From positions 431-64,430 of the forward strand of contig JBBREH010000001.1 in the NCBI GenBank assembly GCA_038203095.1: 64,000 bases of DNA. The letters are read 5' to 3'. The DNA comes from Candidatus Doudnabacteria bacterium. GTDB lineage: Bacteria > Patescibacteriota > Doudnabacteria > UBA920. Shown here piece after piece: positions 2,081 through 63,581 of the stretch. The position numbers and the translations under genes are program-made. How positions within the stretch are numbered: the first letter of the stretch is position 1; each line of letters begins with the position of its first letter. The notes under the pieces were generated by a model. It made no database searches and had not been told where the DNA came from. It was given only the letters and a program-made list of their open reading frames with translations.

Positions 2081-3007
2081 ATGCCTGAACTGCCAGAAGT
2101 TCAAACTATAGTTAGCGAGCTTAATAGGAAATTAAAAAACCGAACTATAAAGTCGGTTGATGTTTTCGCGCCCAAAATGGTTGGGGTGGGTTCGGCGACG
2201 CTCTCTCCTAAAAGAACAGCCTCCGCCCAAACAGTAGAAAAATTTAAAATGCTGATAACTGGCAAAAGGTTTTTATCAGTACGCCGTCGCGCCAAGCTTT
2301 TAATTTTTAAGTTGTCGGGAGAGCTTTTTATGCTTGTTCATCTTAAAATGACCGGACAATTTATTTTTGAAGATAAAGTTTTGCGGGGCAAAACTTTAGG
2401 GAAATATCGGCTTTTGAATAAACTTAATGCGCCGTTAGTTCAGCTACCTTGCAAGCATACGCATGTGATTTTTAATTTTGTCGATCAGACAAAATTATAT
2501 TTTAACGATGTCCGCAAGTTCGGTTATTTAAAGTTGGTGCGCGTTGATGAAATATCCTCTGTTCGTGAACTAAACGAATACGGTCCTGAGCCGTTGGGTA
2601 AATATTTTACCGCCGGACACTTTTTGACGGCCGTCAAAAAGTGTCCGGACAGAAAAATCAAACAAATAATTATGGATAATAAAATTGTGGTGGGGATAGG
2701 CAATATTTACAGCGACGAAATTTTATTTCATGCCGGGGTCCGGCCGACGCGCTTGGTTAAATTACTGTCCGATGTTGAAATTAGCAGTATTTATAAATGG
2801 ATAAAGCCGGTATTAATAAAAGGCATAAAAGCCAAAGGTTCCAGCGTTGGCGACTTTGTCCGTACCGACGGCACCTGGGGCCAAATGGGCAAATTTCACT
2901 TTGTCTACGGACGTAGGGGGCAGAAATGCAAAAAATGTGGTACGACCATCGAATCAGTTAAGCTGGGCGGTCACACAGCTAGTTATTGCCCAAGATGTCA
3001 AGTGTAG
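2081..3007 (+). CDS. fpg: Formamidopyrimidine-DNA glycosylase (Fpg/Nei family)
   Basis: Starts MPELPEV (catalytic Pro2 after Met removal), so the true start is the ATG at 2081 rather than the ORF-track start. C-terminal zinc finger CPRCQ. Confidence 0.8.
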   Translation: MPELPEVQTIVSELNRKLKNRTIKSVDVFAPKMVGVGSATLSPKRTASAQTVEKFKMLITGKRFLSVRRRAKLLIFKLSGELFMLVHLKMTGQFIFEDKVLRGKTLGKYRLLNKLNAPLVQLPCKHTHVIFNFVDQTKLYFNDVRKFGYLKLVRVDEISSVRELNEYGPEPLGKYFTAGHFLTAVKKCPDRKIKQIIMDNKIVVGIGNIYSDEILFHAGVRPTRLVKLLSDVEISSIYKWIKPVLIKGIKAKGSSVGDFVRTDGTWGQMGKFHFVYGRRGQKCKKCGTTIESVKLGGHTASYCPRCQV

Positions 3008-3008
3008 A

Positions 3009-3061
3009 GTGCCCATTTATAGGCTATCTGAGACGCCGATGAATCGGCACGCTACACATAT
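3009..3061. repeat. 53-nt repeat element, copy 1 (intergenic, directly after the fpg stop)
   Basis: About 83 percent identical to 22366..22418. Contains a GCCGAT..ATCGGC hairpin and the shared core ATCGGCACGCTACAC. Confidence 0.7.
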
Positions 3062-6323: not shown

Positions 6324-6446
6324 AATTTTCAATTTTTAATTTCTAATTTTCAATGAATTTGAAATTTTGGAATTTATTAATTAAAACATTATAAATTGTT
6401 TAAAAATTGTAAATTGTAAATTAAAAATTAATTCTTTTTGAAATTT

Positions 6447-8099
6447 ATGAGTAAACTTATTAAATATGGCTATGAAGCCAAGCAGGCTATTAAGGCCGGT
6501 GTAGACAAAGCGGCAAATGTAATTAAAGTCACCTTAGGTCCCACAGGTAAAACTGTAATTTTGGGCACAGGTTTTGGCACGCCCACGGTAACTGACGACG
6601 GCGTAACCGTTGCCAAAGACATTGAGCTAGAAGACAAGTTTGAAAATATTGGCGCTTCTTTAATTCAGGAAGTGGCCAACAAGACCAACGAGCAGGCAGG
6701 AGACGGAACTACTACCGCTACAGTACTCGCGCAAAAAATGATAGAAGAAGCTTTTGGCGCTGTGGCGATTAATTCTTCCCGCGCCAACGACATAAAAAAA
6801 GGCATGGACAAAGCCGTGGCTTTTGTGGTGGAAGAGCTGAAAAAAATGAAAAAAGACGTAAAGGGCAAAGAAGGCATTGAGCAGGTTGCCACCATAGCAT
6901 CCCTTGACCCGGAAGTCGGCAAACTTATTGCCGAAGCCATGGAAGAAGTTGGCCATGACGGCGTAATTACCGTGGAAGAAGGCCAAACAATTGGCATTGA
7001 AAAAGAAGTCGTTAAAGGTATGCGCTTTGATAAAGGCTTTGTTAATCCTTACATGGTCACCAACGCCGAACGTATGGAAGCGGTCTGGGACGATGCCTAT
7101 ATTTTAATCACTGACAAAAAAATCGCCAGCGTTCAGGATATTTTGCCGATTTTGGAAAAAGTCGCGCAAAGTGGCAAGAAAGATTTAGTAATTATTGCCG
7201 ACGAGATTGAAGGCGAAGCTTTAGCCACCTTTGTGGTAAATAAACTTCGCGGCACCTTTAATGTGCTTGCGGTTAAGGCTCCGGGTTTTGGTGACCGCAG
7301 AAAAGAAATGCTTCAGGATATTGCAGTTTTAACCGGCGGAACTGTGATTACTGAAGATATGGGTTTGAAATTGGATAAAACTGAAATTAAGGATTTAGGC
7401 AAGGCTAGAAAAGTTATAGCCACCAAAGAGCACACCACAATTGTGGACGGTGCCGGCAATAAAGCAAAGATTGATGCCCGGGTCAGCCAAATTAAAGCTG
7501 AGCACAAAAACTCCACTTCCGATTACGACAAAGATAAATTACAAGAAAGAATGGCTCGTTTGGCCGGCGGGGTGGGTGTTATTAAAGTAGGCGCCTTTAC
7601 CGAAACCGAAATGAAGGCCAAAAAGTTTAAAATTGAGGACGCACTTAATGCCACTCGCGCGGCCGTGGAAGAGGGGATTATTCCGGGCGGTGGCGTTGCT
7701 TTGGCAAAGCTCGCTCCTAAGCTTGACAGCTTTGGCAGTGAGTTAAACGATGGGCAAAGAGCCGGCGTAAAAGTTATTCGCAATTCTTTGGAAGCCCCGC
7801 TTAGGCAGATTGCAATAAACTCCGGTATTGAAGTTACGCCGATTCTGGCAAAAATTCAAAGCTCAACAGATGCCAACTTTGGTTACAATTTTGCCACTAT
7901 GATGGAAACAGACATGCTCAAAGACGGCATTGTTGACCCGGTTAAGGTTACCCGGTTGGCGCTTGAGCATGCTGTGTCTATTGCCTCTACATTAGTAACA
8001 TCTGAAGCTATTGTTGTAGACAAGCCCGAACCCAAAGAATCCGCCCCTTCCGGCGGCGGTATGGGTGGAGGCATGGGCGGTATGGGGGGAATGTACTAG
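6447..8099 (+). CDS. groEL: Chaperonin GroEL
   Basis: Full-length GroEL similarity with C-terminal GGM repeats. ATG at 6447; the track start at 6438 is a TTG. Confidence 0.95.
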   Translation: MSKLIKYGYEAKQAIKAGVDKAANVIKVTLGPTGKTVILGTGFGTPTVTDDGVTVAKDIELEDKFENIGASLIQEVANKTNEQAGDGTTTATVLAQKMIEEAFGAVAINSSRANDIKKGMDKAVAFVVEELKKMKKDVKGKEGIEQVATIASLDPEVGKLIAEAMEEVGHDGVITVEEGQTIGIEKEVVKGMRFDKGFVNPYMVTNAERMEAVWDDAYILITDKKIASVQDILPILEKVAQSGKKDLVIIADEIEGEALATFVVNKLRGTFNVLAVKAPGFGDRRKEMLQDIAVLTGGTVITEDMGLKLDKTEIKDLGKARKVIATKEHTTIVDGAGNKAKIDARVSQIKAEHKNSTSDYDKDKLQERMARLAGGVGVIKVGAFTETEMKAKKFKIEDALNATRAAVEEGIIPGGGVALAKLAPKLDSFGSELNDGQRAGVKVIRNSLEAPLRQIAINSGIEVTPILAKIQSSTDANFGYNFATMMETDMLKDGIVDPVKVTRLALEHAVSIASTLVTSEAIVVDKPEPKESAPSGGGMGGGMGGMGGMY

Positions 8100-8136
8100 T
8101 CAACAGACACACAGGTGGGAACAGATTGCACAGATA

Positions 8137-8169
8137 AAAATCCTGGCTCCGAAAGGAGCCAGGATTTTG
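8137..8169 (+). terminator. Rho-independent terminator after groEL
   Basis: AAATCCTGGCTCC-GAAA-GGAGCCAGGATTTT followed by a T-run. Confidence 0.7.
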
Positions 8170-8178
8170 TAATATAAT

Positions 8179-8397
8179 GTGCTTATGGGGAATTATGCAG
8201 AATCAGGTTCAGAATTTGGATCCGAACTAAACAATACTGAATTGTCGGATTTTATTATGACTTTTGGTTTTGATGTAAGACTTACTGAAACTTTAAATAG
8301 GCTTTTAGCTGATGACCGGGAAAACGTTTGGAGAGGTCGTTTATTAAGGATTTACAAGTTAGGGCAGGAAGAAAAGGCCTTAGAAAGCGATTTATAG
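8179..8397 (+). CDS. Hypothetical small protein
   Basis: 72-aa ORF; weak support. Confidence 0.25.
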   Translation: MLMGNYAESGSEFGSELNNTELSDFIMTFGFDVRLTETLNRLLADDRENVWRGRLLRIYKLGQEEKALESDL

Positions 8398-8520
8398 TAA
8401 CTACAAGTTAGCGCCGTAAAAGAATCTATTCAAACATTGAAAGATGATCTATCGCTGATAGAAGAGTTGGCGAATGAAAAATAATGGAATAATCTTTTAA
8501 ATAAGCCAAAAATTATATAA

Positions 8521-8563
8521 AAGACCAACTGGGCTTGACAAGTTGGTCTTTTTGGCGTATACT
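8521..8563 (+). promoter_or_regulatory. Hairpin with T-run overlapping a near-consensus sigma70 promoter
   Basis: AAGACCAACT...AAGTTGGTCTTTTT hairpin. TTGACA at 8535, 17-nt spacer, TATACT at 8558. Confidence 0.45.
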
Positions 8564-9342
8564 ACTTGGTCACGTAAAAAAACGTGTGTTTTGCATCTTA
8601 AAAATTCAATATTTAAGCAGTGTGTTTTTGCAGGAGAACATACGACTTTTATACATACCCTTACACCAATCTTCGCCAGAGCGATAAGCAATTACAGTAA
8701 AGTTGACCACATTATAAAGCGACTGATTATTTTAACGAGCATAAGTTTTGTTGGAGATTGGCGTGAGGGTATTATTCACAGATACGTAGAAGGGAACAGA
8801 TTGCACAGATAAATTATCTGCGTCATCTGTATTAATCTGCGCATCCGCGATCTCATGCTCCTAATTTCGTTAACCCGGATTGGGGGCGCTAGAGCCTGTT
8901 TAATAAATTGCTTTCGAAGCGAAATTTCAGAATTTTGAGCGAAAAACTTAAAGAAAAGCGAGGCGACACCAGGGCGTGTCGGTGAGCTTTGATGAAAGTT
9001 TTGCAGCCAAAATTCTGAAATTGCAGCCGAAATGAATTTATTGAACGGGCTCATACTAAAGCCGTATACTAAAGTACTAGAATAATATTACTATGATTCT
9101 CCTGTACTCAAGTCTACGGTTTTTAATTTTTACAAAAGTTTTGAGCTTGTATAGTTTTGCTTGTTTGCTACAAAATTAATTCTAAACATTTTCGTAGTCA
9201 TTTGTAGTGTGCTGATTTTGTAGATTTGTAGTTTGTTTCTGCAAACGTGGGCCATAAGGAGGGCAATTTATATTTTCCGTCCGAGACGGATAGGCCTTAT
9301 TACTTAGACCCACACTTGTGAAAATAAACATAGTTATTGATT

Positions 9343-9376
9343 CCCTCCCCTTGAGGGGGAGGGCTAGGGAGGGGTG
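9343..9376. repeat. G/C-rich palindromic element (intergenic copy)
   Basis: CCCTCCCC-TTGA-GGGGGAGGGCTAGGGAGGGGTG, reverse-complement match to 21724..21765. Confidence 0.65.
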
Positions 9377-9660
9377 AATTAAAGAAATCAAAGGGGGCAA
9401 CAAAGCCTCTTTTTCTTTGTCCCGTTAGCATTTATCGGCTATCGGCTAAAATTATTTTGGCTATGAGTTAAAGGCAATCTTCCGGAGCCTGTTTTATAAC
9501 CTCACCTGACCTCCCCTTTAAAAAGGAGAGGGATTAAAAACCGCCCTTGGGCGGATATTTTGTGAAAAAGAGTTTGGCGGTGTAAATATTATTATTTAAA
9601 TTGCCAGTCTCGTTTCCACAAAGCACGGTTTGTGGTAAGTGGGAACGGAAGGAGGCAGGA

Positions 9661-9882
9661 ATGCCTGTGGCAGTTTTTTCAATTGTAATCCTGCTTCTTT
9701 TGGCGGGATTTACCGCGGAGTTTTGCTGGCTCCGCAACCTCGTCCGGCAAAGTTTGCGGGATGAGGATATGGCAATCTTTTTTCGGATGGTCCAAGCGGC
9801 CATCCGCAACCTGCGGACTAACATCCGCATCTGGTGGGCTCTGCTCACCTCAATGCGCCCGCTTAAGGGCGGGTGGCAATAA
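9661..9882 (+). CDS. Hypothetical small membrane protein (73 aa)
   Basis: GGAGG RBS 6 nt upstream of the ATG; hydrophobic N-terminal helix. Confidence 0.3.
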   Translation: MPVAVFSIVILLLLAGFTAEFCWLRNLVRQSLRDEDMAIFFRMVQAAIRNLRTNIRIWWALLTSMRPLKGGWQ

Positions 9883-9896
9883 GGAGGGAAAAAATA

Positions 9897-10037
9897 ATGG
9901 AGTTTGAAATCTCCTACAGGTTGTCAAAATTCCTTTTTGCCATCGGGGTGAGTTTAGCCTCGGTCATAATTTTTGCGGCTTTCTTAGCTGCGTTAATTTG
10001 GCTGACAGGTGGCAAAAACAAAGGGGATGATAAGTAA
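9897..10037 (+). CDS. Hypothetical small membrane protein (46 aa), tandem to the previous ORF
   Basis: AGGAGG RBS at 9883; single TM helix. Below the ORF-track size cutoff. Confidence 0.25.
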   Translation: MEFEISYRLSKFLFAIGVSLASVIIFAAFLAALIWLTGGKNKGDDK

Positions 10038-10291
10038 AGGCAGACAGCAAAGTCTTTATACAAATCATCCCCCTCACACTTTTTTGTTTACTCAACCGCT
10101 TGCGAGGGTTAATTTAAATTTAGATTACAAGATCTAAACCTAAATTAACCTCCTGCCTCGCCGGCGGCTGAGTTGACGAAAACAGCGGTTTTAGCTATAA
10201 TTTGTGAGTTAAATTATTATTTAAATTTACCCTTCGACTCGCTCGCCTTAAAGGCGAGCTCGCTCAGGGTAAAATTTTCAAGGAAAATTTT

Positions 10292-10462
10292 ATGGGAGTT
10301 CCAAAAAAGCACAAAACTAAATCGGGTCGTAATCAACGCAGAAGCCATGACTCTTTAAAGGTTCGCAGTTTTGCCAAGTGCAAAAATTGCGAACAGCCGA
10401 CTATGCCACATTTGCCCTGCAAGAATTGCGGGTTTTATAAAGGACGTAAAGTTACGAAATAG
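10292..10462 (+). CDS. rpmF: 50S ribosomal protein L32
   Basis: MGVPKKHKTKSGRNQRRSHDSLK...CKNCG..KGRKV matches L32; 56 aa, below the ORF-track size cutoff. Confidence 0.8.
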   Translation: MGVPKKHKTKSGRNQRRSHDSLKVRSFAKCKNCEQPTMPHLPCKNCGFYKGRKVTK

Positions 10463-17684: not shown

Positions 17685-17957
17685 TTCGCCGCGACTTCCC
17701 TCCTAAGTCCGCTTAAGGCGGGCGAAAGAGGGGAGAATACAAACAAGGTGAAGGAGCTTAAGAATATGACTAAGGGGAAAAAGTAATAATAAGCCTACAA
17801 TGGGCATCATTGCATATGTAATGATGCCCATTGTATCTGGTCCAATTAATTTTGAATTATTCAGGAATTAAGTCTATAATGACTATAAATCTTCTTGAAA
17901 AAAGCCATTAAGTGAGCAGTGTTTTAAAAGGTAGTGTAATTAATTATATTATTTATT

Positions 17958-20374: not shown

Positions 20375-22084
20375 ATGCAAAAAATGGTGATTAAGGTTGT
20401 AAAGATTATTATTGCCACAGCAATTTTTGCCTGGTTTGGTCTATTTTTGGCGCATAAAATAGATTTAACCACCGCGGATTTAGGCCGGCATATTGTTAAT
20501 GGATCGATAATTTTACACGGATCTTGGGCAGAGAAGTGGGCCGTGCTTAATACCAATTTTTATTCTTATACCTTACCTAATCAGCCATTTGTTAACCATC
20601 ACTGGGGGAGTGGAGTGGTTTTTTATTTAATTTTTTTGGCATTTGGATTTGCGGGGTTGTCTGTATTTTATGTAGGTTTGGGATTGGCGACGTTGTGGTT
20701 ATTTTTTGACGTAGCCAGAAGAGCGAGCAATTTTTGGATATCGTCTGCTGTGACAATTTCTCTAATCCCGTTGCTTTCGGCTCGCGCCGAAGTTCGTCCG
20801 GAAATGTTTACCTATTTTTTTACGGGAGTATTTTTTTGGGTGCTGTGGAAATCGCGGAATGACGCGGAACTTAACGCTGAAAGACGCGGAAGCTATAAGT
20901 TGCTCTGGATTTTGCCTATAATTGTTCTGCTTTGGGTTAATTTGCATATTGGTTTTGTGTTTGGGTTTTTGGTGCTGGGGGCGTTTGGATTGGAAGAAAT
21001 AATAAGGAATTTTCCATTCCGAATGCATCTGAGGAATCTGTTAAATCCAGGAACAGACAGATCCCTCCGTTCGCCCTCGGATGCACTCGGTCTTGGTTGG
21101 GATGGCAAATTACAAAAACTGATTATCATATCGGCGCTTTGCATTCTCGCAGGCTTAATAAATCCTTTTGGCTATAAACTGTTAATTTACCCCGCGCAAA
21201 TTTTTAAGAATTACGGTTATTTGATTGTAGAAAATCAATCCATCCGTTTTTTGGAGCGTCTAAATTTTGTTCAAGGCCAACACTTTTTACTTTTTAAACT
21301 GGCCGTGGCCGGGGTCATTATCAGTTTTATCGGAGTTGCCATAAGGTGGTGGAGAAAGATTGATATCACGATGTTGGTATTAGTCATAATCACAGCCTTT
21401 ATGGCTTATTTGGGAATTCGTAATTTTCCGTCTTTCGCGTTTTTCGCCTTGCCGGCCGCGGCCGGAAATTTGTATTTAATTAAACCGCAAAATCTTCATC
21501 GCGCGTACAAGTATTCGCTGTCAGTTATTCTTATTTTTATTGTAATTATTTGCGCCCAATCCCAGTACCAAACTTTTATGGAAATCAGGCCTGTTTTAGG
21601 TTTTGGTGTTTTGCCCGGTGTTAACCAGTCGGCTGATTTTTACAAGGCTAATAATCTTAAAGGTCCTATATTTAACAATTATGACGTTGGCGGATATTTA
21701 ATTTATCATTTATATCAAAAAAATCACCCCCTCCTAGCCTCCCCCATCAAGGGGGAGGAAGGGGGCACGGACACAAAGCTCTTTGTGGACAACAGGCCGG
21801 AAGCTTATACAACTGATTTTTTTGAAAATTCCTACAAACTGCCGCAAACGGACAGCCAAAAATGGCAGGAACTTGATAACCGGTATAATTTTAACTCCAT
21901 CTTTTTTTCCCACCGCGACTATACCCCGTGGGGTCAGGCGTTTTTAATTTCGCGAATACAGGATCCCACTTGGGCGCCGGTGTTTGTAGACACGTACAAT
22001 ATAATCTTTGTAAAAAGAAACCCACAGAACGCGGATTTAATTAAAAAATATGAACTACCAAAAAGTATGTTTGGCATTAAATAA
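20375..22084 (+). CDS. Polytopic membrane protein, candidate GT-C-type glycosyltransferase
   Basis: At least 12 predicted TM helices, immediately upstream of a Dpm1-like GT2. Contains two in-frame repeat-element insertions (21024..21091, 21724..21765). Confidence 0.45.
   Translation: MQKMVIKVVKIIIATAIFAWFGLFLAHKIDLTTADLGRHIVNGSIILHGSWAEKWAVLNTNFYSYTLPNQPFVNHHWGSGVVFYLIFLAFGFAGLSVFYVGLGLATLWLFFDVARRASNFWISSAVTISLIPLLSARAEVRPEMFTYFFTGVFFWVLWKSRNDAELNAERRGSYKLLWILPIIVLLWVNLHIGFVFGFLVLGAFGLEEIIRNFPFRMHLRNLLNPGTDRSLRSPSDALGLGWDGKLQKLIIISALCILAGLINPFGYKLLIYPAQIFKNYGYLIVENQSIRFLERLNFVQGQHFLLFKLAVAGVIISFIGVAIRWWRKIDITMLVLVIITAFMAYLGIRNFPSFAFFALPAAAGNLYLIKPQNLHRAYKYSLSVILIFIVIICAQSQYQTFMEIRPVLGFGVLPGVNQSADFYKANNLKGPIFNNYDVGGYLIYHLYQKNHPLLASPIKGEEGGTDTKLFVDNRPEAYTTDFFENSYKLPQTDSQKWQELDNRYNFNSIFFSHRDYTPWGQAFLISRIQDPTWAPVFVDTYNIIFVKRNPQNADLIKKYELPKSMFGIK
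21724..21765. repeat. G/C-rich palindromic element (in-frame inside the membrane-protein CDS, opposite orientation)
   Basis: CACCCCCTCCTAGCCTCCCCCATCAAGGGGGAGGAAGGGGG; encodes HPLLASPIKGEEGG. Confidence 0.65.
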
Positions 22085-22200
22085 TTGACAAGATTGAGCA
22101 AGATTTTCATGCCAGAGGCAGATCCACCTTCGGCGGAAAATGATTGACAACATTGGAATGCAATTGTCTTTATAATCTTTTAAATCATGTTAATCAACTT

Positions 22201-22932
22201 ATGAAGCTGTCAATAATCATCCCAGCGCACAATGAAGAAAAAACCATTGCTCAGGTTTTGGAGCAGGTTTTAAAAGTGGATTTGGACGGGTGGGAGAAAG
22301 AGGTGGTTGTGGTGGATGACGGAAGTAGTGACGGGACAGGTACTATCCTGGAAAAGATTTGTAGCGTGCCCATTTATGGGCATTCCGGATCGCCGATAAA
22401 TCGGCACGCTACACTTATTAGCCACCCCACCAATCTCGGCAAAGGCGCGGCAATAAAATCGGCTTTGGTCAAAGCCACCGGGGATTACGTAATTATTCAG
22501 GACGCGGATTTGGAGTATAATCCGGGCGATATCGTTAATCTTTTATCGTTTATCCCTGACGATGGAAAACATCGGATTGCCATTTTTGGCAAGCGCGGTT
22601 ATAAAGCTTATCCGGAGCGCGGCTTCCACTATGTTATTGGCGCGTGGTTGCTTACTACTTTTTATAACTTGCTTTATGGCCAGCAACTTACGGATCTTTA
22701 CACTGGCTACAAATTAATCCCGACACGCATTTTTAAAGAACTAAACATTGAGTCCAACGGTTTTGAATTTGAAGCCGAAGTGGCTTGTAAGCTGGTGAAA
22801 AAAAATGTTATTATAAAGGAAGTAGAAATTAGTTATTTACCCAGAAACAAAGCTCAAGGTAAACATATTCGCTTTGTTGACGCCGTGAAAGGTTTTTGGA
22901 CTATTGTTAAAATTAGGCTATTTAAGAATTGA
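22201..22932 (+). CDS. GT2 glycosyltransferase (polyprenyl-phosphate sugar synthase/Dpm1-like)
   Basis: LSIIIPAHNEE...VVVVDDGSSDGT...DADLEYNP motifs. ATG at 22201. Carries a 53-nt repeat insertion at 22366..22418. Confidence 0.75.
   Translation: MKLSIIIPAHNEEKTIAQVLEQVLKVDLDGWEKEVVVVDDGSSDGTGTILEKICSVPIYGHSGSPINRHATLISHPTNLGKGAAIKSALVKATGDYVIIQDADLEYNPGDIVNLLSFIPDDGKHRIAIFGKRGYKAYPERGFHYVIGAWLLTTFYNLLYGQQLTDLYTGYKLIPTRIFKELNIESNGFEFEAEVACKLVKKNVIIKEVEISYLPRNKAQGKHIRFVDAVKGFWTIVKIRLFKN
22366..22418. repeat. 53-nt repeat element, copy 2 (in-frame inside the GT2 CDS)
   Basis: Matches 3009..3061; encodes VPIYGHSGSPINRHATL inserted before the GKG motif of the GT2. Confidence 0.7.
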
Positions 22933-23905: not shown

Positions 23906-24898
23906 ATGGATAGAAATTTAGCTTTGGAATTTGTGCGGGTAACTGAGGCGGCGGCTATTGCAGCTAGTAAGTGGATAGGCAAGGGTGACGGTAAAAAGGC
24001 TGATGGCGCGGCAGTAGATGAAATGCGGTCGCGTTTTAATCAGATAGATTTTAAAGGCGTGGTGGTAATTGGTGAGGGGCAGAAAGACGAGGCGCCGGAA
24101 CTTTACACCGGGGAGAAGGTGGGACTTGGATGGAAAAACTCCAACCACCCCGGCCTTTCAGGCCACCCCTCCTTGAAAAGGAGGGGAGACTCCGTGTTTG
24201 ACCTTGCTGTTGACCCGCTTGAATGTACCGACAGCGTGGCTTATGGGCGTTATAATGCGATTGCGGTTATTGCGGCCGGAGCGCGGGGCTCGCTTTTAAG
24301 TGCGCCCGATACTTATATGGAAAAGTTGGCGGCCGGGCCAAAGGCTGCTAAAGTAATTAAAATGGGTGCGCCGGTTAAGCTAAACATTGAACGTACGGCC
24401 AAGGCTCTTGGTAAAAAAGTTGGGGATGTTACGGTGTGCATAATGGATAGAGAGCGCCATAAAGATTTAATTGGTCAGGTAAGAAAAATAGGCGCCAGAG
24501 TGCGGCTAATTACAGACGGCGACGTAGCGGGCGGGATAGCAACGTGTATGCCAGAATCGGGGATAGACCTGCTTATGGGCATTGGCGCTTCCGCAGAGGC
24601 AGTTTTGGCCGCCACAGCCATTAAAATTCTGGGTGGGCAAATATTCGCTCGCTTTAACCCAATGAAAGAAGCTCATCATCAATTGTTAAAAAAAGCCGGC
24701 CTTAACGACAAAAAAATTTACTCTGTAAACGACCTGGCCAAAGGTCAAACCCTAACCTTTACCGCCACAGGCATTATTGACGGCCCACTGCTTCAAGGGG
24801 TGAGGGTTGAGGGTAGCTACATTATAACCCATTCGATAGTAATCCGCGGTCAGAGCGGAACAATAAGATATATAACAACGCATCATAAGGAGAAATAG
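23906..24898 (+). CDS. glpX: Fructose-1,6-bisphosphatase class II (GlpX)
   Basis: Collinear with GlpX (LALEFVRVTEAAAIAA...GEGQKDEAPELYTGEKVG...DLAVDP). Carries an extra ~17 aa encoded by a palindromic element at 24149..24190. Confidence 0.85.
   Translation: MDRNLALEFVRVTEAAAIAASKWIGKGDGKKADGAAVDEMRSRFNQIDFKGVVVIGEGQKDEAPELYTGEKVGLGWKNSNHPGLSGHPSLKRRGDSVFDLAVDPLECTDSVAYGRYNAIAVIAAGARGSLLSAPDTYMEKLAAGPKAAKVIKMGAPVKLNIERTAKALGKKVGDVTVCIMDRERHKDLIGQVRKIGARVRLITDGDVAGGIATCMPESGIDLLMGIGASAEAVLAATAIKILGGQIFARFNPMKEAHHQLLKKAGLNDKKIYSVNDLAKGQTLTFTATGIIDGPLLQGVRVEGSYIITHSIVIRGQSGTIRYITTHHKEK
24149..24190. repeat. G/C-rich double hairpin inserted in-frame in glpX
   Basis: GGCC-TTTCA-GGCC followed by CCCCTCCTT-GAAA-AGGAGGGG; encodes PGLSGHPSLKRRGD, which is absent from E. 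coli GlpX at that point. Confidence 0.6.
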
Positions 24899-25345
24899 AA
24901 TTTTTAATTTTCAATTTGTAATTTTTAAACAATGTACAAATTTTATAATTATGAAGTATGATTTAGAGGAAAGAACGAGAAAATTTTCAAAAGAATTGAT
25001 TAGGTTTTTGAAAACGATTAAATCAAATTTAATAAACCAATCAATTATTTCTCAATTGGTTAGGTCTGCAACCAGTGTCGGAGCGAATTACTGTGAAGCG
25101 AATGCGGCTAGCTCTAAGAAAGATTTTACGAATAAAATATTTATTTGCAGGAAAGAAATTCAAGAAACAAAATATTGGTTTGAATTATTGGCAGAATCTA
25201 ATCCCGAAAGCAAAGATGAATTAAGAAAATTTTGGAAAGAAGCTCATGAATTGACGTTAATATTTAATAAAATATCAACATCTTTAAGATCAAAATTAGA
25301 AAATTGAAGAATTGTTTATAAATTAAAAATTGAAAATTAAAAATT
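24899..25345. mobile_element. IR-flanked cassette carrying a four-helix-bundle (IVS-type) protein gene, exactly between the glpX stop and the fba start
   Basis: 35-nt AT-rich inverted repeats at 24899..24933 and 25311..25345 (33/35 complementary). Confidence 0.55.
24951..25307 (+). CDS. Four-helix-bundle protein (23S rRNA intervening-sequence protein family)
   Basis: RSATSVGANYCEA...KDF..KI.ICRKEIQETKYWFELL motifs. Confidence 0.65.
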   Translation: MKYDLEERTRKFSKELIRFLKTIKSNLINQSIISQLVRSATSVGANYCEANAASSKKDFTNKIFICRKEIQETKYWFELLAESNPESKDELRKFWKEAHELTLIFNKISTSLRSKLEN

Positions 25346-27668: not shown

Positions 27669-28505
27669 ATGACAACAAAAATCTTTCTCGACTCAGGCGA
27701 CCCCGTTGAAACCAAACAAGCTTTAAAGTTGCTTGGGTTTTTGGACGGGCAAACTACTAATCCGTCGTTAATTGCTAAAAATCCGGCCACCAGCGGAAAA
27801 AAATTTACTGAAGATGAACTGCTAAAATTTTACCGTGGTATAGTTACAGAAGTCTCGTCGCTCATTCCAAAAGGCAGTGTTTCAATAGAAGTTTATGCGG
27901 ACAAAAATATGTTGGCAAATGAAATGCTGGCGCAGGGTAGGGAGTTTAATACTTGGATTCCGAACGCCCATATTAAATATCCGACTACGACCGAAGGTTT
28001 AAAGGCAGCTGAAATAAGCGTGAAAGAGGGAATGAGGGTAAATATGACGCTAGTTTTTAGTCAGGAGCAGGCTGCTGCAGTTTATGCCGCAACAAAAGGA
28101 GCATTGCGCGGACAAGTTTATTTGTCGCCATTCGTGGGTAGGCTGGATGACCGTGGGGAGAATGGCATGGATTTTGTTTCTAACGTCGTAAAAATGTATG
28201 AACAAGGCGACGGACATGTGGAAATTTTGTCAGCTTCAATTAGGTCAAGCGAACATATGAGAAAGGCGATTGAACAGGGTAGTGATATTATTACGGCACC
28301 GCTAAAAGTTTTAAAAGAGTGGGTAGAGGCGGGATCTTCCTCCTCCCCTCGCCAGGGGAGGATGCCCATAGGACAGGAGAGTTTGCTGCCAATTCTTTAT
28401 CAGGATATCAGCTTAAACAAGCCCTGGCAGGAATATAATTTACAGCATAATTTAACTAATGCCGGTTTGGAAAAATTTACAAGTGACTGGAATTCCTTAT
28501 TATAA
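27669..28505 (+). CDS. tal: Transaldolase (Fsa/TalC-type)
   Basis: IFLDSGDP...TTNPSL motifs. ATG at 27669. C-terminal region carries an extra segment that includes the palindromic element at 28342..28361. Confidence 0.8.
   Translation: MTTKIFLDSGDPVETKQALKLLGFLDGQTTNPSLIAKNPATSGKKFTEDELLKFYRGIVTEVSSLIPKGSVSIEVYADKNMLANEMLAQGREFNTWIPNAHIKYPTTTEGLKAAEISVKEGMRVNMTLVFSQEQAAAVYAATKGALRGQVYLSPFVGRLDDRGENGMDFVSNVVKMYEQGDGHVEILSASIRSSEHMRKAIEQGSDIITAPLKVLKEWVEAGSSSSPRQGRMPIGQESLLPILYQDISLNKPWQEYNLQHNLTNAGLEKFTSDWNSLL
28342..28361. repeat. G/C-rich hairpin inserted in-frame in the transaldolase gene
   Basis: CCTCCCC-TCGCCA-GGGGAGG within a C-terminal extra segment (SSSSPRQGRMPIG). Confidence 0.55.
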
Positions 28506-28513
28506 CATAAAAT

Positions 28514-29248
28514 CCACTTGGAAGAGGGGACACCTCTTCCAAGTGGGACTAATCTATTAATAAAGCTTGAATTTGTTTTTGTTTTTCTATTAGAGGACCG
28601 CTTTCTTCTACAAATTTTTTATAATCGTTAACCGTCTTAAATTTATCCATAATAACTCGCTTATCACAAAGGCCATCGTTTCTTTTTTCAATGTAATCCG
28701 AATAACTACTAAAGGCATATTCATCCGGAGTTTTTACAATCCCGGCCACAGTTGGGTTTTGATGAATATAGGCCGAAAGCCAAGTTAAATAAGATTCATT
28801 TTCTACCGGTATGGCTTTGAATGCTCCTTGAAATAAATGGCCCACATGGTCGTATTTTTTTTGAAAGTAGACTGCGTAGCCGGTGCATAGTTTTTGGATC
28901 AGTTTGCTAATTTTAATTTCGTTGTTTTGTCTTATTAATAAATGAAAATGGTTAGGCATAAGACAATAGCAGATTAAAGAAAATGCATCTGTAGGCAATT
29001 GCTTTCTTTTGTATTTTATATCAAGAGAGCTTGGGCTAACTTCCAATTCATTTTCTGGGAATAAATTTTCTCTTAATCGATGAATAAAAATTCCATAATC
29101 TTGGGGATCAAAAAAAATATCATTTTTACCATTACCTCGATTAAAGACATGATAATAATTTCCCGCAGTAAAAGTTTTGTAATCACGATAACGCATAATC
29201 ATATTATACCATAAAATTAACTTGGAAGAGGGGACACCTCTTCCAGTT
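28514..29248. mobile_element. IS200/IS605-like or RAYT-like unit: Y1 transposase flanked by near-identical palindromic hairpins
   Basis: CCACTTGGAAGAGG-GGACA-CCTCTTCCAAGTGG at 28514..28547 and AACTTGGAAGAGG-GGACA-CCTCTTCCAGTT at 29219..29248; 40 nt from tRNA-Pro. Confidence 0.6.
28549..29202 (-). CDS. HUH-Y1 transposase (IS200-like / REP-associated tyrosine transposase-like)
   Basis: YHVFNRGN..IFFDPQDY; HUH motif in LMPNHFHLLI; downstream Tyr (YIHQNP). Probable start at M68 of the track ORF, because the upstream part overlaps tRNA-Pro. Confidence 0.65.
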   Translation of the reverse strand: MIMRYRDYKTFTAGNYYHVFNRGNGKNDIFFDPQDYGIFIHRLRENLFPENELEVSPSSLDIKYKRKQLPTDAFSLICYCLMPNHFHLLIRQNNEIKISKLIQKLCTGYAVYFQKKYDHVGHLFQGAFKAIPVENESYLTWLSAYIHQNPTVAGIVKTPDEYAFSSYSDYIEKRNDGLCDKRVIMDKFKTVNDYKKFVEESGPLIEKQKQIQALLID

Positions 29249-44105: not shown

Positions 44106-46157
44106 ATGTCAAGCAAAAAGATTGCGCTCATTACCGGTATTACGGGCCAAGATGGCTCATATTTGGCGGAATTTTTATTGGCCAAAGGTTACGAGGTTCA
44201 CGGAATTATCCGTCGTGCTAGCGTATTTAATACCGAACGCATTGAACAAATTTATCAGGATCCTAACCTGCCGCACAGACAGTTATTTTTGCATTACGGC
44301 GATTTAGCCGACGCTTCAAATTTAAACCAGTTGCTTAAAAAAATTCAGCCTACAGAAATTTATAATTTGGGTGCGCAAAGTCACGTAAAAGTGAGTTTTG
44401 AAATTCCGGAATATACCGCCAATATTGACGCTTTGGGAACTTTAAGGTTGCTAGATGCCATCAGGGAAAATAAAATTGCCACCAAGTTTTACCAGGCGGG
44501 TTCCAGCGAAATGTTTGGCGATGTTCTACAAACACCCCAGTCGGAAAAGACGCCTTTTAATCCGGCCAGTCCTTACGGCGCGGCAAAAGTTTTTTCCCAT
44601 CATATTTGCAAAAATTATCGCGAGGCTTACGGAATGTTTATTTGCAACGGCATTTTATTTAATCACGAATGCTTAACAGCCCAAACCCCTTTGGTAATTA
44701 GAAAGAATGGGCTTTTAGATATTGCCGCAATAGAAGAAATAGTTCCTCATAGAGAAAATCCAAAACACGGAATTAAATACACAACAGTTGCCGATAAAGA
44801 GTTAGAAGTTTGGGATGGGGGTAAGTGGACAGCAATAAAAATACTAACAGCAACTTGGAATGAGTCCGGTTCTAAAAATGACAAAAAGCTCAAAAGAGTG
44901 ATTAGTAGGGGGGCTTACTATGAGGCCACAAGCGATCATATTTCATTTTTGGAAGGAGGGCGGGAAATCAAGACTGTCGATTTGTTCAAGGGAAACTGTT
45001 TGGAGCTAAAAAAGTTACCTGCTTTAACTAATATTATGTCTCTTACCTTAGAAGAAGCGGAATTTTTGGGTATGATGGCAGGCGATGGGTATATCAGTCA
45101 AGAAGGCAAAGGTAGATTTATAAATAATAATAAGTCATTACGAGAACGGATTGTTAAATTGTGGCAACAGATTGCGGGAGGCTTTAGCAGGGAAGGTGAA
45201 CATCCAAGCGGGTTCGTAAAGGGCAAAAACGTAAAATCAATAGAGTTGGCGGGCAATCCTCGTTATTTGCGTTATATATGGAGCGAACTTTACAATGAGA
45301 AATTGTTTAAAAAAGTTCCTGGCAGAGTTTTAAATAGTAATATTCAGGTTATGAGAGCCTTTTTAAGGGGCTACAACCTATGCGACGGTCTTAAAGCCGG
45401 CAAGCAAAGAACAGAGTTTAAGTCTTTTACAACCAATTCTGCGGTGTTGGCGTCTGGTTTGTGGTGGCTGCTAGATCAAGCAATGGGTTTAAGAATTACT
45501 CTGCACCCAGAATTTAGAAAGGATAAATTGTATTTTCATTTGAATATAAATACTGACAAGGTTACTTTAAAAGGCAAGCATCTCAAGAAGAAAATAAATG
45601 AAATTAAAGATGTAAAAGATTTTAAGTATACGGGATGGTTGTTTGACCTTGAAACAGAAAGTGGGACTTTTTCGGCGGGGGTAGGGTTATCATGGGTGCA
45701 TAATTCCCCAAGGCGCGGTAAAACTTTTGTGACGCGCAAAATTACTACAGGCATTGCGTCTATTTTGGCCGGAAAAACCAAGAAGATTTACCTGGGAAAT
45801 TTAAACGCCAAGCGGGATTGGGGTTTTGCGCCTGAGTACATAGAGGCTATGTGGCTAATGTTGCAGCAAAATAAGCCGGATGATTACGTAATTGCCACGG
45901 GCGAAACCCATTCAATTAAAGAATTTTTAGATATTGCTTTTAAGCTCGTGGGAATTAAAGACTGGAAAAAATACATTGGTATTGACCCAAAATATTATCG
46001 TCCTCAGGAGGTTAATCTTTTGCTCGGCGACGCCGGCAAAGCCAAAAAAAAGTTAGGCTGGAAACCCAAGGTGAAATTTAAAGAGTTGGTTAAAATAATG
46101 TTGGAAGCGGATTTAAAAGAAATCGGCCTAAGCCCGGCAAAATATATTAAAGTATGA
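44106..46157 (+). CDS. gmd: GDP-mannose 4,6-dehydratase interrupted by an intein (precursor 683 aa)
   Basis: Exteins are collinear with Gmd ([17 protein letters not shown]...ILFNHE | [14 protein letters not shown]...). A 345-aa insertion lies between E188 and S534. Confidence 0.85.
44670..45704 (+). other. Intein with LAGLIDADG homing-endonuclease domain inside gmd
   Basis: Begins with Cys (CLTAQTPLV), TxxH block (TSDH), two LAGLIDADG-like motifs ([26 protein letters not shown]), ends ...GVGLSWVHN followed by +1 Ser. Confidence 0.8.
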
Positions 46158-63477: not shown

Positions 63478-63581
63478 TCACAGATACACAGATAAAAGCA
63501 GATTACACAGATGCGATAATTTAACTACGACCGGATTTTATAAAAACCGTATTTATTGAGAAGTTTGTAATTTATTAAAAC

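Follow-up and report, generated by a model that had tools for sequence, protein, structure and literature searches.

The question raised by this locus is why one short G/C-rich sequence lies both in an intergenic spacer and, inverted, inside a membrane protein gene of a member of the Patescibacteria (candidate phyla radiation, CPR). Both copies are located in the 64-kb stretch of DNA (~40% GC) that was analysed here as a whole (the window). The intergenic copy (copy A, 9343-9376) reads CCCTCCCCTTGAGGGGGAGGGCTAGGGAGGGGTG, and the genic copy (copy B, 21725-21765) reads CACCCCCTCCTAGCCTCCCCCATCAAGGGGGAGGAAGGGGG. The reverse complement of 9343-9376 aligned with 21725-21758 with 30 matches, 2 mismatches, and 3 one-base gaps in 35 columns, in agreement with the original prediction, in which the sole error in the quoted sequences was the start of the second copy (21724 instead of 21725). 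The local score of copy B against the rest of the window was 40, compared with a mean best score of 22.7 ± 2.0 (max 34, a single outlier) in 100 first-order Markov shuffles of the window. Copy B is translated in frame within the open reading frame (ORF) 20375-22084 as the peptide HPLLASPIKGEEGG, as had also been claimed. Judged from sequence, the element is probably a class II (purine-motif) G/C-rich intrastrand triplex motif of the BoxC/PIT/TM class, that is to say, a relative of the Escherichia coli repeat BoxC, which Hoyne et al. (2000) re-described as a “potential intrastrand triplex” (PIT) and Holder et al. 2015 (PMC4666352) as TM_ECO. The explanation that we favour as a whole, with a probability of roughly 0.7, is that such a BoxC-type motif is tolerated in this lineage as a selfish or near-neutral repeat.

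On its G-rich strand, the element consists of a C-rich arm, a loop of 4-5 nt, a G-rich purine arm, a 3-nt loop (CTA), and a further G-rich block that mirrors the purine arm. Copy A, whose G-rich strand is the plus strand (9342-9377; finder span 9342-9374), contains the C-arm CCCTCCCC (9343-9350), the loop TTGAG (9351-9355), the purine arm GGGGAGGG (9356-9363), the loop CTA (9364-9366), the mirror block GGGAGGGG (9367-9374), and a tail TGA. Copy B, whose G-rich strand is the minus strand (finder span 21727-21759), reads CCTCCCCC / TTGAT / GGGGGAGG / CTA / GGAGGGGG on that strand; on the plus strand, it comprises the complement of the mirror block CCCCCTCC (21727-21734), the linker TAG (21735-21737), the C-arm CCTCCCCC (21738-21745), the loop ATCAA (21746-21750), the purine arm GGGGGAGG (21751-21758), and an extra AAGGGGG (21759-21765), so that the mRNA bears the C-rich strand. 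Both copies form 8/8 perfect G·G-C / A·A-T triplets, and the single A/T is displaced between them in coordination across all three blocks. The DNA hairpin energies, which cover the hairpin part only, are -9.7 kcal/mol for copy A and -14 to -15.6 kcal/mol for copy B. The description of the element as palindromic thus captured a repeated family and the paired arms, but a plain palindrome does not account for the third block, which mirrors the purine arm.

The mirror rule was evaluated in matches whose search pattern had left the third block unconstrained (129 viral and 128 genome matches; see below for the searches). The third block was a perfect 3'-side mirror in 94/129 viral and 105/128 genome matches, whereas a direct-repeat model, in which the tail would be a duplicated arm, fitted 32/129 and 5/128, respectively, and was rejected. 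The opposite-flank control gave 0-3 of the 129 viral and 3-4 of the 128 genome matches. Compensatory changes in the two arms were found among the genome matches (CCCTCCCCC/GGGGGAGGG versus CCTTCCCCC/GGGGGAAGG).

We searched both strands for class I and class II motifs using a finder modelled on ITxF (stem ≥8, ≤1 bad triplet, stem GC ≥50%, loop 1 of 3-8 nt, loop 2 of 1-30 nt). Exactly 4 motifs were found in the window, all of class II, compared with a mean of 0.10 (max 2) per shuffled window in 200 shuffles. The third motif (9498-9531, minus strand) is intergenic and A/T-richer, and consists of CCTCTCCTT, the loop TTTA, AAGGGGAGG, the loop TCA, and GGTGAGGTT, with 8/9 triplets. The fourth (24143-24187, minus strand), which we designate the “long form”, is located in glpX (23906-24898) and consists of TCCCCTCCTT, the loop TTC, AAGGAGGGGT, a small hairpin (GGCC TGAAA GGCC), and GGGGTGGTT, with 9/10 triplets; its two hairpins have an energy of -14.2 kcal/mol (z = -4.0). 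The motifs have the block order, Watson-Crick arms, antiparallel third block, stem of at least 8, at most 1 bad triplet, and over-representation by which ITxF defines class II. The ITxF loop limit of 1-6 nt accommodates the loops of copies A and B (5 and 3 nt) and those of 9498-9531 (4 and 3 nt) and is exceeded by the second loop of the glpX motif (12 nt). Because the G-rich strand is the plus strand at 9342 and the minus strand at 21727, 24143, and 9498, the proposed independence of orientation is borne out. Of the 2 further hairpins that had been regarded as related, 9511-9532 proved to be part of the member 9498-9531, whereas 17700-17745 is a nested pyrimidine/purine hairpin just 3' of the metK stop codon that lacks a third block. 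A hairpin in the transaldolase gene (28341-28365) was likewise rejected as a member, having no good third block.

Pyrimidine/purine hairpins are indeed common in the window (15 versus 4.2 expected), the sequences are of low complexity, and one shuffle reached a score of 34. The pair could therefore be a chance likeness of low-complexity C/G-rich hairpins such as terminators, or the genic copy could be an unrelated ancestral coding segment. The probability of either is close to nil: the score and the motif count far exceed the shuffled values, the third blocks shared by the copies follow the mirror rule, the hairpins of copies A and B have no T-run 3' of them, most homologues of the host protein lack the segment, and the same DNA occurs at another site of that protein family (see below). 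Other readings considered from the sequence alone were set aside, namely, a Shine-Dalgarno-like role and mimicry of the 16S 3' end, as the copies are genic, in both orientations, and distant from start codons, and FtsK-orienting polar sequences (KOPS, GGGNAGGG), as the hairpin would place KOPS on both strands. Neither the window nor 9 loci with motifs had an Rfam match at the gathering threshold, and only noise at E ≤ 5 was observed near 9343; a full-text literature search with the element sequence returned nothing relevant.

The G-rich strand might instead form a G-quadruplex, or the C-rich strand an i-motif. Copy A has four G-runs of at least 3 with loops of 1-3 nt (GGGGG A GGG CTA GGG A GGGG), and the E. 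coli motif could in principle make three tetrads (PMC4666352). However, copy A was the only one of the 4 window motifs to match the canonical quadruplex pattern (four G3+ runs, loops of 1-7 nt); the runs of copy B are 5, 2, 2, and 5, and 9498-9531 and the glpX motif have no four G3 runs, while all of them follow the mirror/triplet rule. A quadruplex would not need the C-rich arm, which is nevertheless conserved and co-varying, and the 18 imino signals observed by nuclear magnetic resonance (NMR) for the E. coli motif were assigned to a triplex and not to a quadruplex (PMC4666352). We therefore consider a quadruplex unlikely.

The host of copy B is a 569-aa polytopic membrane protein encoded on the plus strand. 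The protein had no Pfam match; a Foldseek search returned matches to DPY19, STT3/AglB/PglB, and ArnT, and, on its predicted model, the protein is a glycosyltransferase of the GT-C fold. The insert corresponds approximately to residues 448-468 (QKNHPLLASPIKGEEGGTDT) in the C-terminal soluble domain. In the AlphaFold2 model (mean predicted local distance difference test score (pLDDT) 84, pTM 0.87), residues 450-468 are the longest segment with a pLDDT under 50. Homologues numbered 1841, with names including Patescibacteria, Saccharimonadales, Doudnabacteria, and Paceibacterota, and most of them read ...YHLYPEKVFVDNRPEA without an insert. At the copy B site, ~95/120 homologues were insert-free, reading ...GGYLIYHLYP(E)EKVFVDNRPEA, and the window protein had ~17 additional residues. 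Inserts encoded by triplex motifs occurred at this site in homologues P0037 (HPHLASPFKGEEA), P0011 and P0020 (PLSLNPSPSRGEGD), and P0017, and motifs were confirmed in the fetched DNA of the insert-bearing genes. In a neighbour-joining tree, the motif-bearing orthologues fell into at least 3 separate clades, beside insert-free relatives.

The copies in this protein family also bear on what is under constraint. The copies of the window and of the fetched loci L242 and L252 share 37/39 element bases: TCACCCCC[T/A]CCTAGCCTCCCCC[A/T/C]TCAAGGGGGAGGAAG. The L242 copy of this 39-nt subfamily is at the same site as copy B, in a host protein that is 45% identical, and the L252 copy, in another member of the protein family, occupies a different position (residues 51-66). 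Only the third-block interruption and the first loop base vary among the three, and both variations change the peptide. These variable positions are those left free by the triplet rule, which argues for a constraint on the nucleic acid rather than on the peptide. The L252 copy, being at another site, cannot be an orthologue of the window copy, and a single subfamily must therefore have inserted independently at least once. Stop codons are absent from three of the 6 frames in which the element can be read, and copy B and its relatives are translated in the one that gives HP.LASP.KGEE.

The same loop of the GT-C protein contains unrelated repeat families in other lineages, of the “QHGSGQQMDT” type and of the “RGSGSSIADTHADQ” type (L005 1382-1456 and L243 3241-3318); this loop is a hot spot for several repeat families. 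A distinct 60-nt palindromic repeat (TGTAGCGTGCCCATTTATGGGC...GCCGATAAATCGGCACGCTACA) occurs in the window at 3000-3059 and 22357-22416, with ~80% identity between the copies, one at the fpg stop codon and the other in frame in a glycosyltransferase family 2 (GT2) gene (22144-22932), where it encodes CSVPIYGHSGSPINRH in a loop that is variable between orthologues. Other repeat families, of the “ACAGATTGCACAGATAAA” / “TTATCTGCGTCATCTG” type, were found at 8103-8138, 8778-8844, 343-373, and 63480-63515.

The fourth window motif gives a second filled-versus-empty comparison. The in-frame product of the glpX motif is NHPGLSGHPSLKRRG, within an insert of 17-18 residues that is missing in three relatives (81-83% identity) and in the aligned PDB glpX chain 6ayy. 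Short direct repeats bracket several copies, namely, ACTCC (5 nt) at the glpX motif taken over 24137-24198, CAC/CAC at copy B, and AGA/AGA at the L001 copy (described below); they may reflect chance or microhomology.

A wider sample was assembled by a protein-anchored scan of metagenome contigs, which gave 80 loci of relatives and, together with the window, 848 kb of DNA, 84% of it in ORFs of at least 120 aa. The finder detected 37 motifs, of which 36 were of class II. Twenty-two of the 37 were in the 16% of the DNA outside ORFs, corresponding to a density ~8-fold higher in spacers than in ORFs; the other 15 were inside ORFs, well over the ~1 expected by chance. The ORFs that hold motifs encode transketolase (at several sites), class I aldolase, MetK, the ATP synthase gamma subunit (atpG), and the GT-C protein. 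In the transketolase gene (tkt) of L001, the G-rich strand is the sense strand, and the motif is an insert relative to orthologues. The strict TM_ECO pattern (CCCTCNCCC N3-6 GGGNGAGGG N3 GGGNGAGGG; PMC4666352) had 0 matches in the window. It was present in 23 fetched loci, one of which is the Patescibacteria relative L243; the TM_ECO-type motif of L243 is located in the GT2 gene and is also an insert relative to orthologues.

The 19-kb locus L252 (SXGR01047668.1) contained 11 finder matches, several of which were overlapping opposite-strand calls at one site, with some sites qualifying on both strands by virtue of third blocks on either side; 8 matches were in frame within the transketolase, aldolase, metK, and GT-C protein genes. 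In the otherwise syntenic glycolysis / pentose-phosphate cluster of the window and its relatives, small genes of the “23S rRNA intervening sequence protein” and PDDEXK_3 types occupy variable positions (24951-25307 in the window; L246 13977-14333 and 17451-17837; L001 13972-14376). Elsewhere in the window, a GDP-mannose 4,6-dehydratase ORF of 683 aa (44106-46157) had a Pfam match in two stretches (best 8-200) and a LAGLIDADG match at residues 415-469, which looks like an intein.

Of the intergenic motifs, copy A is located between groEL (6438-8099) and rpmF (10292-10462), in a stretch of ~2.2 kb that contains no credible ORFs. It is 95% identical to L245 4876-4913, in the syntenic groEL-nusB spacer. 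For 9498-9531, the counterpart is L246 4184-4226 (86% identity) in the syntenic groEL-rpmF spacer; the flanks could not be aligned in either pair. Such pairs would arise if the motif itself were constrained or if one subfamily had arrived repeatedly, and the two are indistinguishable here. The spacer downstream of groEL (8100-10290; L246 3392-6358; L245 3172-5379) is unusually long (2-3 kb) and contains no credible ORFs in any of the three. It holds collinear blocks that are kept in relatives (8497-8778, 70%; 8853-8891; 9057-9124, 84%) and had no Rfam match, and may represent an undescribed RNA or decayed genes. Copy A is located within 9125-9495, a stretch with no BLAST counterpart in L246.

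The motif is distributed far beyond these relatives. A hairpin-only pattern (CCTCCCCC N0-1 TCAA GGGG N0-2 AGG) had 149 matches in IMG/VR contigs with 39-72% GC. Almost all of them have, a few bases away on the upstream side, the tail (T)CACCCCC[A/T]CCC, which the pattern did not include; a “long form” has this tail 15-20 bases upstream and a small extra GC hairpin in between. In some copies on viral contigs, GGTGGGGGTGA precedes an ATG by 4-6 nt. A BLAST search of GenBank phages with the motif gave no match. The 20-base pattern common to copies A and B (CTAGCC N0-1 TCCCCC N0-1 TCAAGGGG) was found in at least 120 stretches of contigs representing one genome per species, mostly of Dehalococcoidia. 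Among the matches listed were those of Dehalococcoidia (many copies per genome), Devosia, Hyphomicrobiaceae, Rickettsiales, Planctomycetota, Gallionella, Nitrospinota, Melainabacteria, and Chitinophaga. In 2 Dehalococcoidia loci (L136 927-1991 and L181 6768-7215), the motif recurs every ~213-277 nt inside longer tandem repeat units. The outcome that the original prediction had named as counting against it, only 2 chance matches, is at odds with 4 motifs against 0.10 expected in the window, 37 in 848 kb, and these 120 or more stretches.

A plasmid search with the motif returned 18 records. On Aeromonas plasmids (L327, NZ_CP077204.1, 901-939), the motif is located between a short folK coding sequence and the sulfonamide-resistance gene sul4, and a Sphingobium plasmid has a similar match overlapping folK. 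A Chloroflexi origin has been proposed for sul4. If sul4 is Chloroflexi-derived, the adjacent motif would be a hitch-hiker from a motif-rich donor.

The conservation of the motif might be taken as the mark of a host-selected functional signal, either a DNA structure for replication pausing or recombination or an element with an RNA-level role, in which a C-rich anti-Shine-Dalgarno-like arm is combined with two G-rich Shine-Dalgarno-like blocks or a hairpin stabilises the mRNA. Several of the above observations fit a signal of this kind: the motif is kept while the flanks are unalignable; it is near-identical in Dehalococcoidia, Alphaproteobacteria, Planctomycetota, Melainabacteria, and Patescibacteria; its polarity is the same in 36/37 copies; it is denser in non-ORF DNA; and some viral copies precede a start codon at a short distance. 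In addition, the E. coli motif loci are rearranged more than controls (PMC4666352). By contrast, the occurrence of copies in unrelated housekeeping genes in either sense orientation and their turnover among close relatives are not expected of a host signal, and copy A is ~900 nt from the next gene on its strand. Promoter or terminator activity, an effect on RNA polymerase, and an in vivo replication block were not found for the E. coli motif (Hoyne & Maher 2002, summarised in PMC4666352), which also has no associated gene class or fixed distance (PMC4666352). A host function is thus possible but doubtful.

According to the selfish or near-neutral repeat explanation that we favour, the G-rich strand would become single-stranded during replication, repair, or transcription, so that its arms can pair as a hairpin; the third block could then lie antiparallel in the major groove and form G·G-C and A·A-T (or T·A-T) triplets. 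The motif would be a small non-autonomous repeat, repeatedly inserted and probably repeatedly lost through a process acting on single-stranded DNA. Copies would persist only where they are tolerated, that is to say, in spacers, or in exposed loops if their length is a multiple of three and their frame is stop-free. In the case of copy B, the outer domain of the GT-C protein would simply gain ~17 residues as a disordered loop rich in Pro, Ser, Gly, and Glu. We infer mobility from the presence of both filled and empty sites in orthologous genes and from the 39-nt subfamily at the other site in L252. The original prediction had regarded mobility as shown by the 2 window copies; these demonstrate both orientations but not movement.

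An enzyme supplied in trans would be one way to move such a motif. The sole transposase-like gene in the window (28549-~29200, minus strand) encodes a Y1 (HUH) transposase (Pfam Y1_Tnp, E = 3.5e-11) whose best NCBIfam match is “REP-associated tyrosine transposase” (RAYT; REP, repetitive extragenic palindromic). IS200/IS605 and RAYT enzymes act on single-stranded DNA hairpins, so the motifs might be REP-like substrates mobilised by this protein via the folded single-stranded hairpin, and their lack of target-site duplications is expected for that enzyme family. However, the gene is bracketed by a different hairpin repeat of 44 nt (TGGAAGAGG-GGACA-CCTCTTCCA), whose only two copies in the window are direct repeats at 28498-28541 and 29202-29245, and no triplex motif adjoins the transposase gene. 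The NCBIfam match scores 45 bits against a cut-off of 80, and no transposase or integrase has been found near the E. coli BoxC copies (PMC4666352). Mobilisation by this RAYT-like protein is therefore very improbable. The gene itself is located between the transaldolase gene and tRNA-Pro, and none was called after the transaldolase gene in L243 and L246; the listed ORF overruns tRNA-Pro, and its likely start is the ATG at 29196.

Several points weigh against the explanation that we favour. We know of no mobilising enzyme for BoxC-type motifs, and no transposase is linked to triplex motifs within the window, so that “mobile” stays an inferred property. A target-site duplication was not detected in 80 distinct copies, in which the longest shared flank word was 2.76, compared with 2.68 ± 0.10 in permuted pairs. 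The triplex structure of the window copies is predicted, and single strands of TM_ECO form a very stable triplex according to circular dichroism and NMR, whereas none was observed in duplex DNA or by in vivo footprinting; the E. coli triplex has thus been seen on isolated single strands only (PMC4666352). Both the 86-95% identity of intergenic copies within unalignable flanks and the near-identity across phyla suggest that the sequence itself is constrained, as would be expected of a functional element no less than of a selfish one. The scan of the source genome covers 64 kb only.

Comparison with known repeats places the element closest to BoxC/PIT/TM_ECO (Bachellier et al. 1999; Hoyne et al. 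2000; Hoyne & Maher 2002; PMC4666352). These share the three-block order, the triplet rules, a multi-copy distribution in both orientations, stems of 8-9 nt, and loops of 4-5 nt (the first, often TTGA) and 3 nt (the second, CTA in copies A and B and TTA or CCG in E. coli). In 262 proteobacterial genomes, TM_ECO has been counted 3610 times, and cyanobacteria also have many G/C-rich motifs; the motif loci show local genomic instability, and no transposase is associated with them (PMC4666352). E. coli copy 2 (CCCTCTCCCTTGAGGGAGAGGGTTAGGGTGAGGGT) and window copy A are similar by eye, a comparison made without a formal alignment. The differences are that (i) TM_ECO has two purine interruptions per stem and the window copies have one, which are thus a single-interruption variant of the class; (ii) the E. 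coli K-12 motif is “always located intergenically” (PMC4666352), whereas 2/4 window copies are in frame inside conserved genes; and (iii) the host is a member of the Patescibacteria with ~40% GC, and a “long form” carries the extra small hairpin in loop 2.

In their coding copies, the window elements resemble the Rickettsia palindromic elements (RPEs; Ogata et al. 2000, reviewed in PMC10969869), which are self-folding short repeats that occur in frame in unrelated housekeeping genes as well as intergenically and add peptide segments at fold-compatible positions. By contrast, RPEs are ~100-150 bp long, specific to Rickettsia, divided into ten sequence families, and not triplex motifs, whereas the window elements are 35-45 nt long, occur in many phyla, and have a Patescibacteria host; the two were set apart by description. 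REPs and the bacterial interspersed mosaic elements (BIMEs) built with them, together with RAYT genes, are similar in being short, GC-rich, imperfect palindromes that are dispersed, usually extragenic, and in either orientation, and a RAYT-like gene is present in the window. However, the mirror third block is absent from REPs, which are typically clustered near their RAYT gene, and the RAYT-like gene of the window has the other hairpin repeat. Miniature inverted-repeat transposable elements (Correia/NEMIS, ERIC, and Nezha) are also small non-autonomous repeats able to create in-frame fusions, but they have terminal inverted repeats and target-site duplications, neither of which was found in the triplex motifs, and are usually 100-400 bp long. 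The recurrent in-frame residence of BoxC/PIT/TM-class motifs in conserved Patescibacteria genes is the unusual feature.

A bolder and speculative proposal, to which we give little credence at present, is that triplex motifs are domain-wide mobile single-stranded-DNA elements that recurrently insert, in Patescibacteria, in a preferred frame into exposed loops of essential enzymes, with the same 39-nt sequence arriving independently at different sites. If this were true, the filled and empty gene sites would be the first exact insertion junctions for BoxC-type repeats, and the spreading mechanism would become testable, be it a trans-acting HUH/Y1 enzyme, such as the RAYT-like protein of the window, or replication template switching.

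BoxC/PIT/TM repeats have been known for decades and in thousands of copies. Our results extend the motif class to Patescibacteria and to taxa well beyond the Proteobacteria and Cyanobacteria emphasised so far. The in-frame copies in glpX, transketolase, aldolase, metK, atpG, and the GT-C gene allow clean filled-versus-empty comparisons, in the manner of RPEs. The inserts enlarge and vary protein loops in small genomes, and are worth recognising in annotation and modelling.

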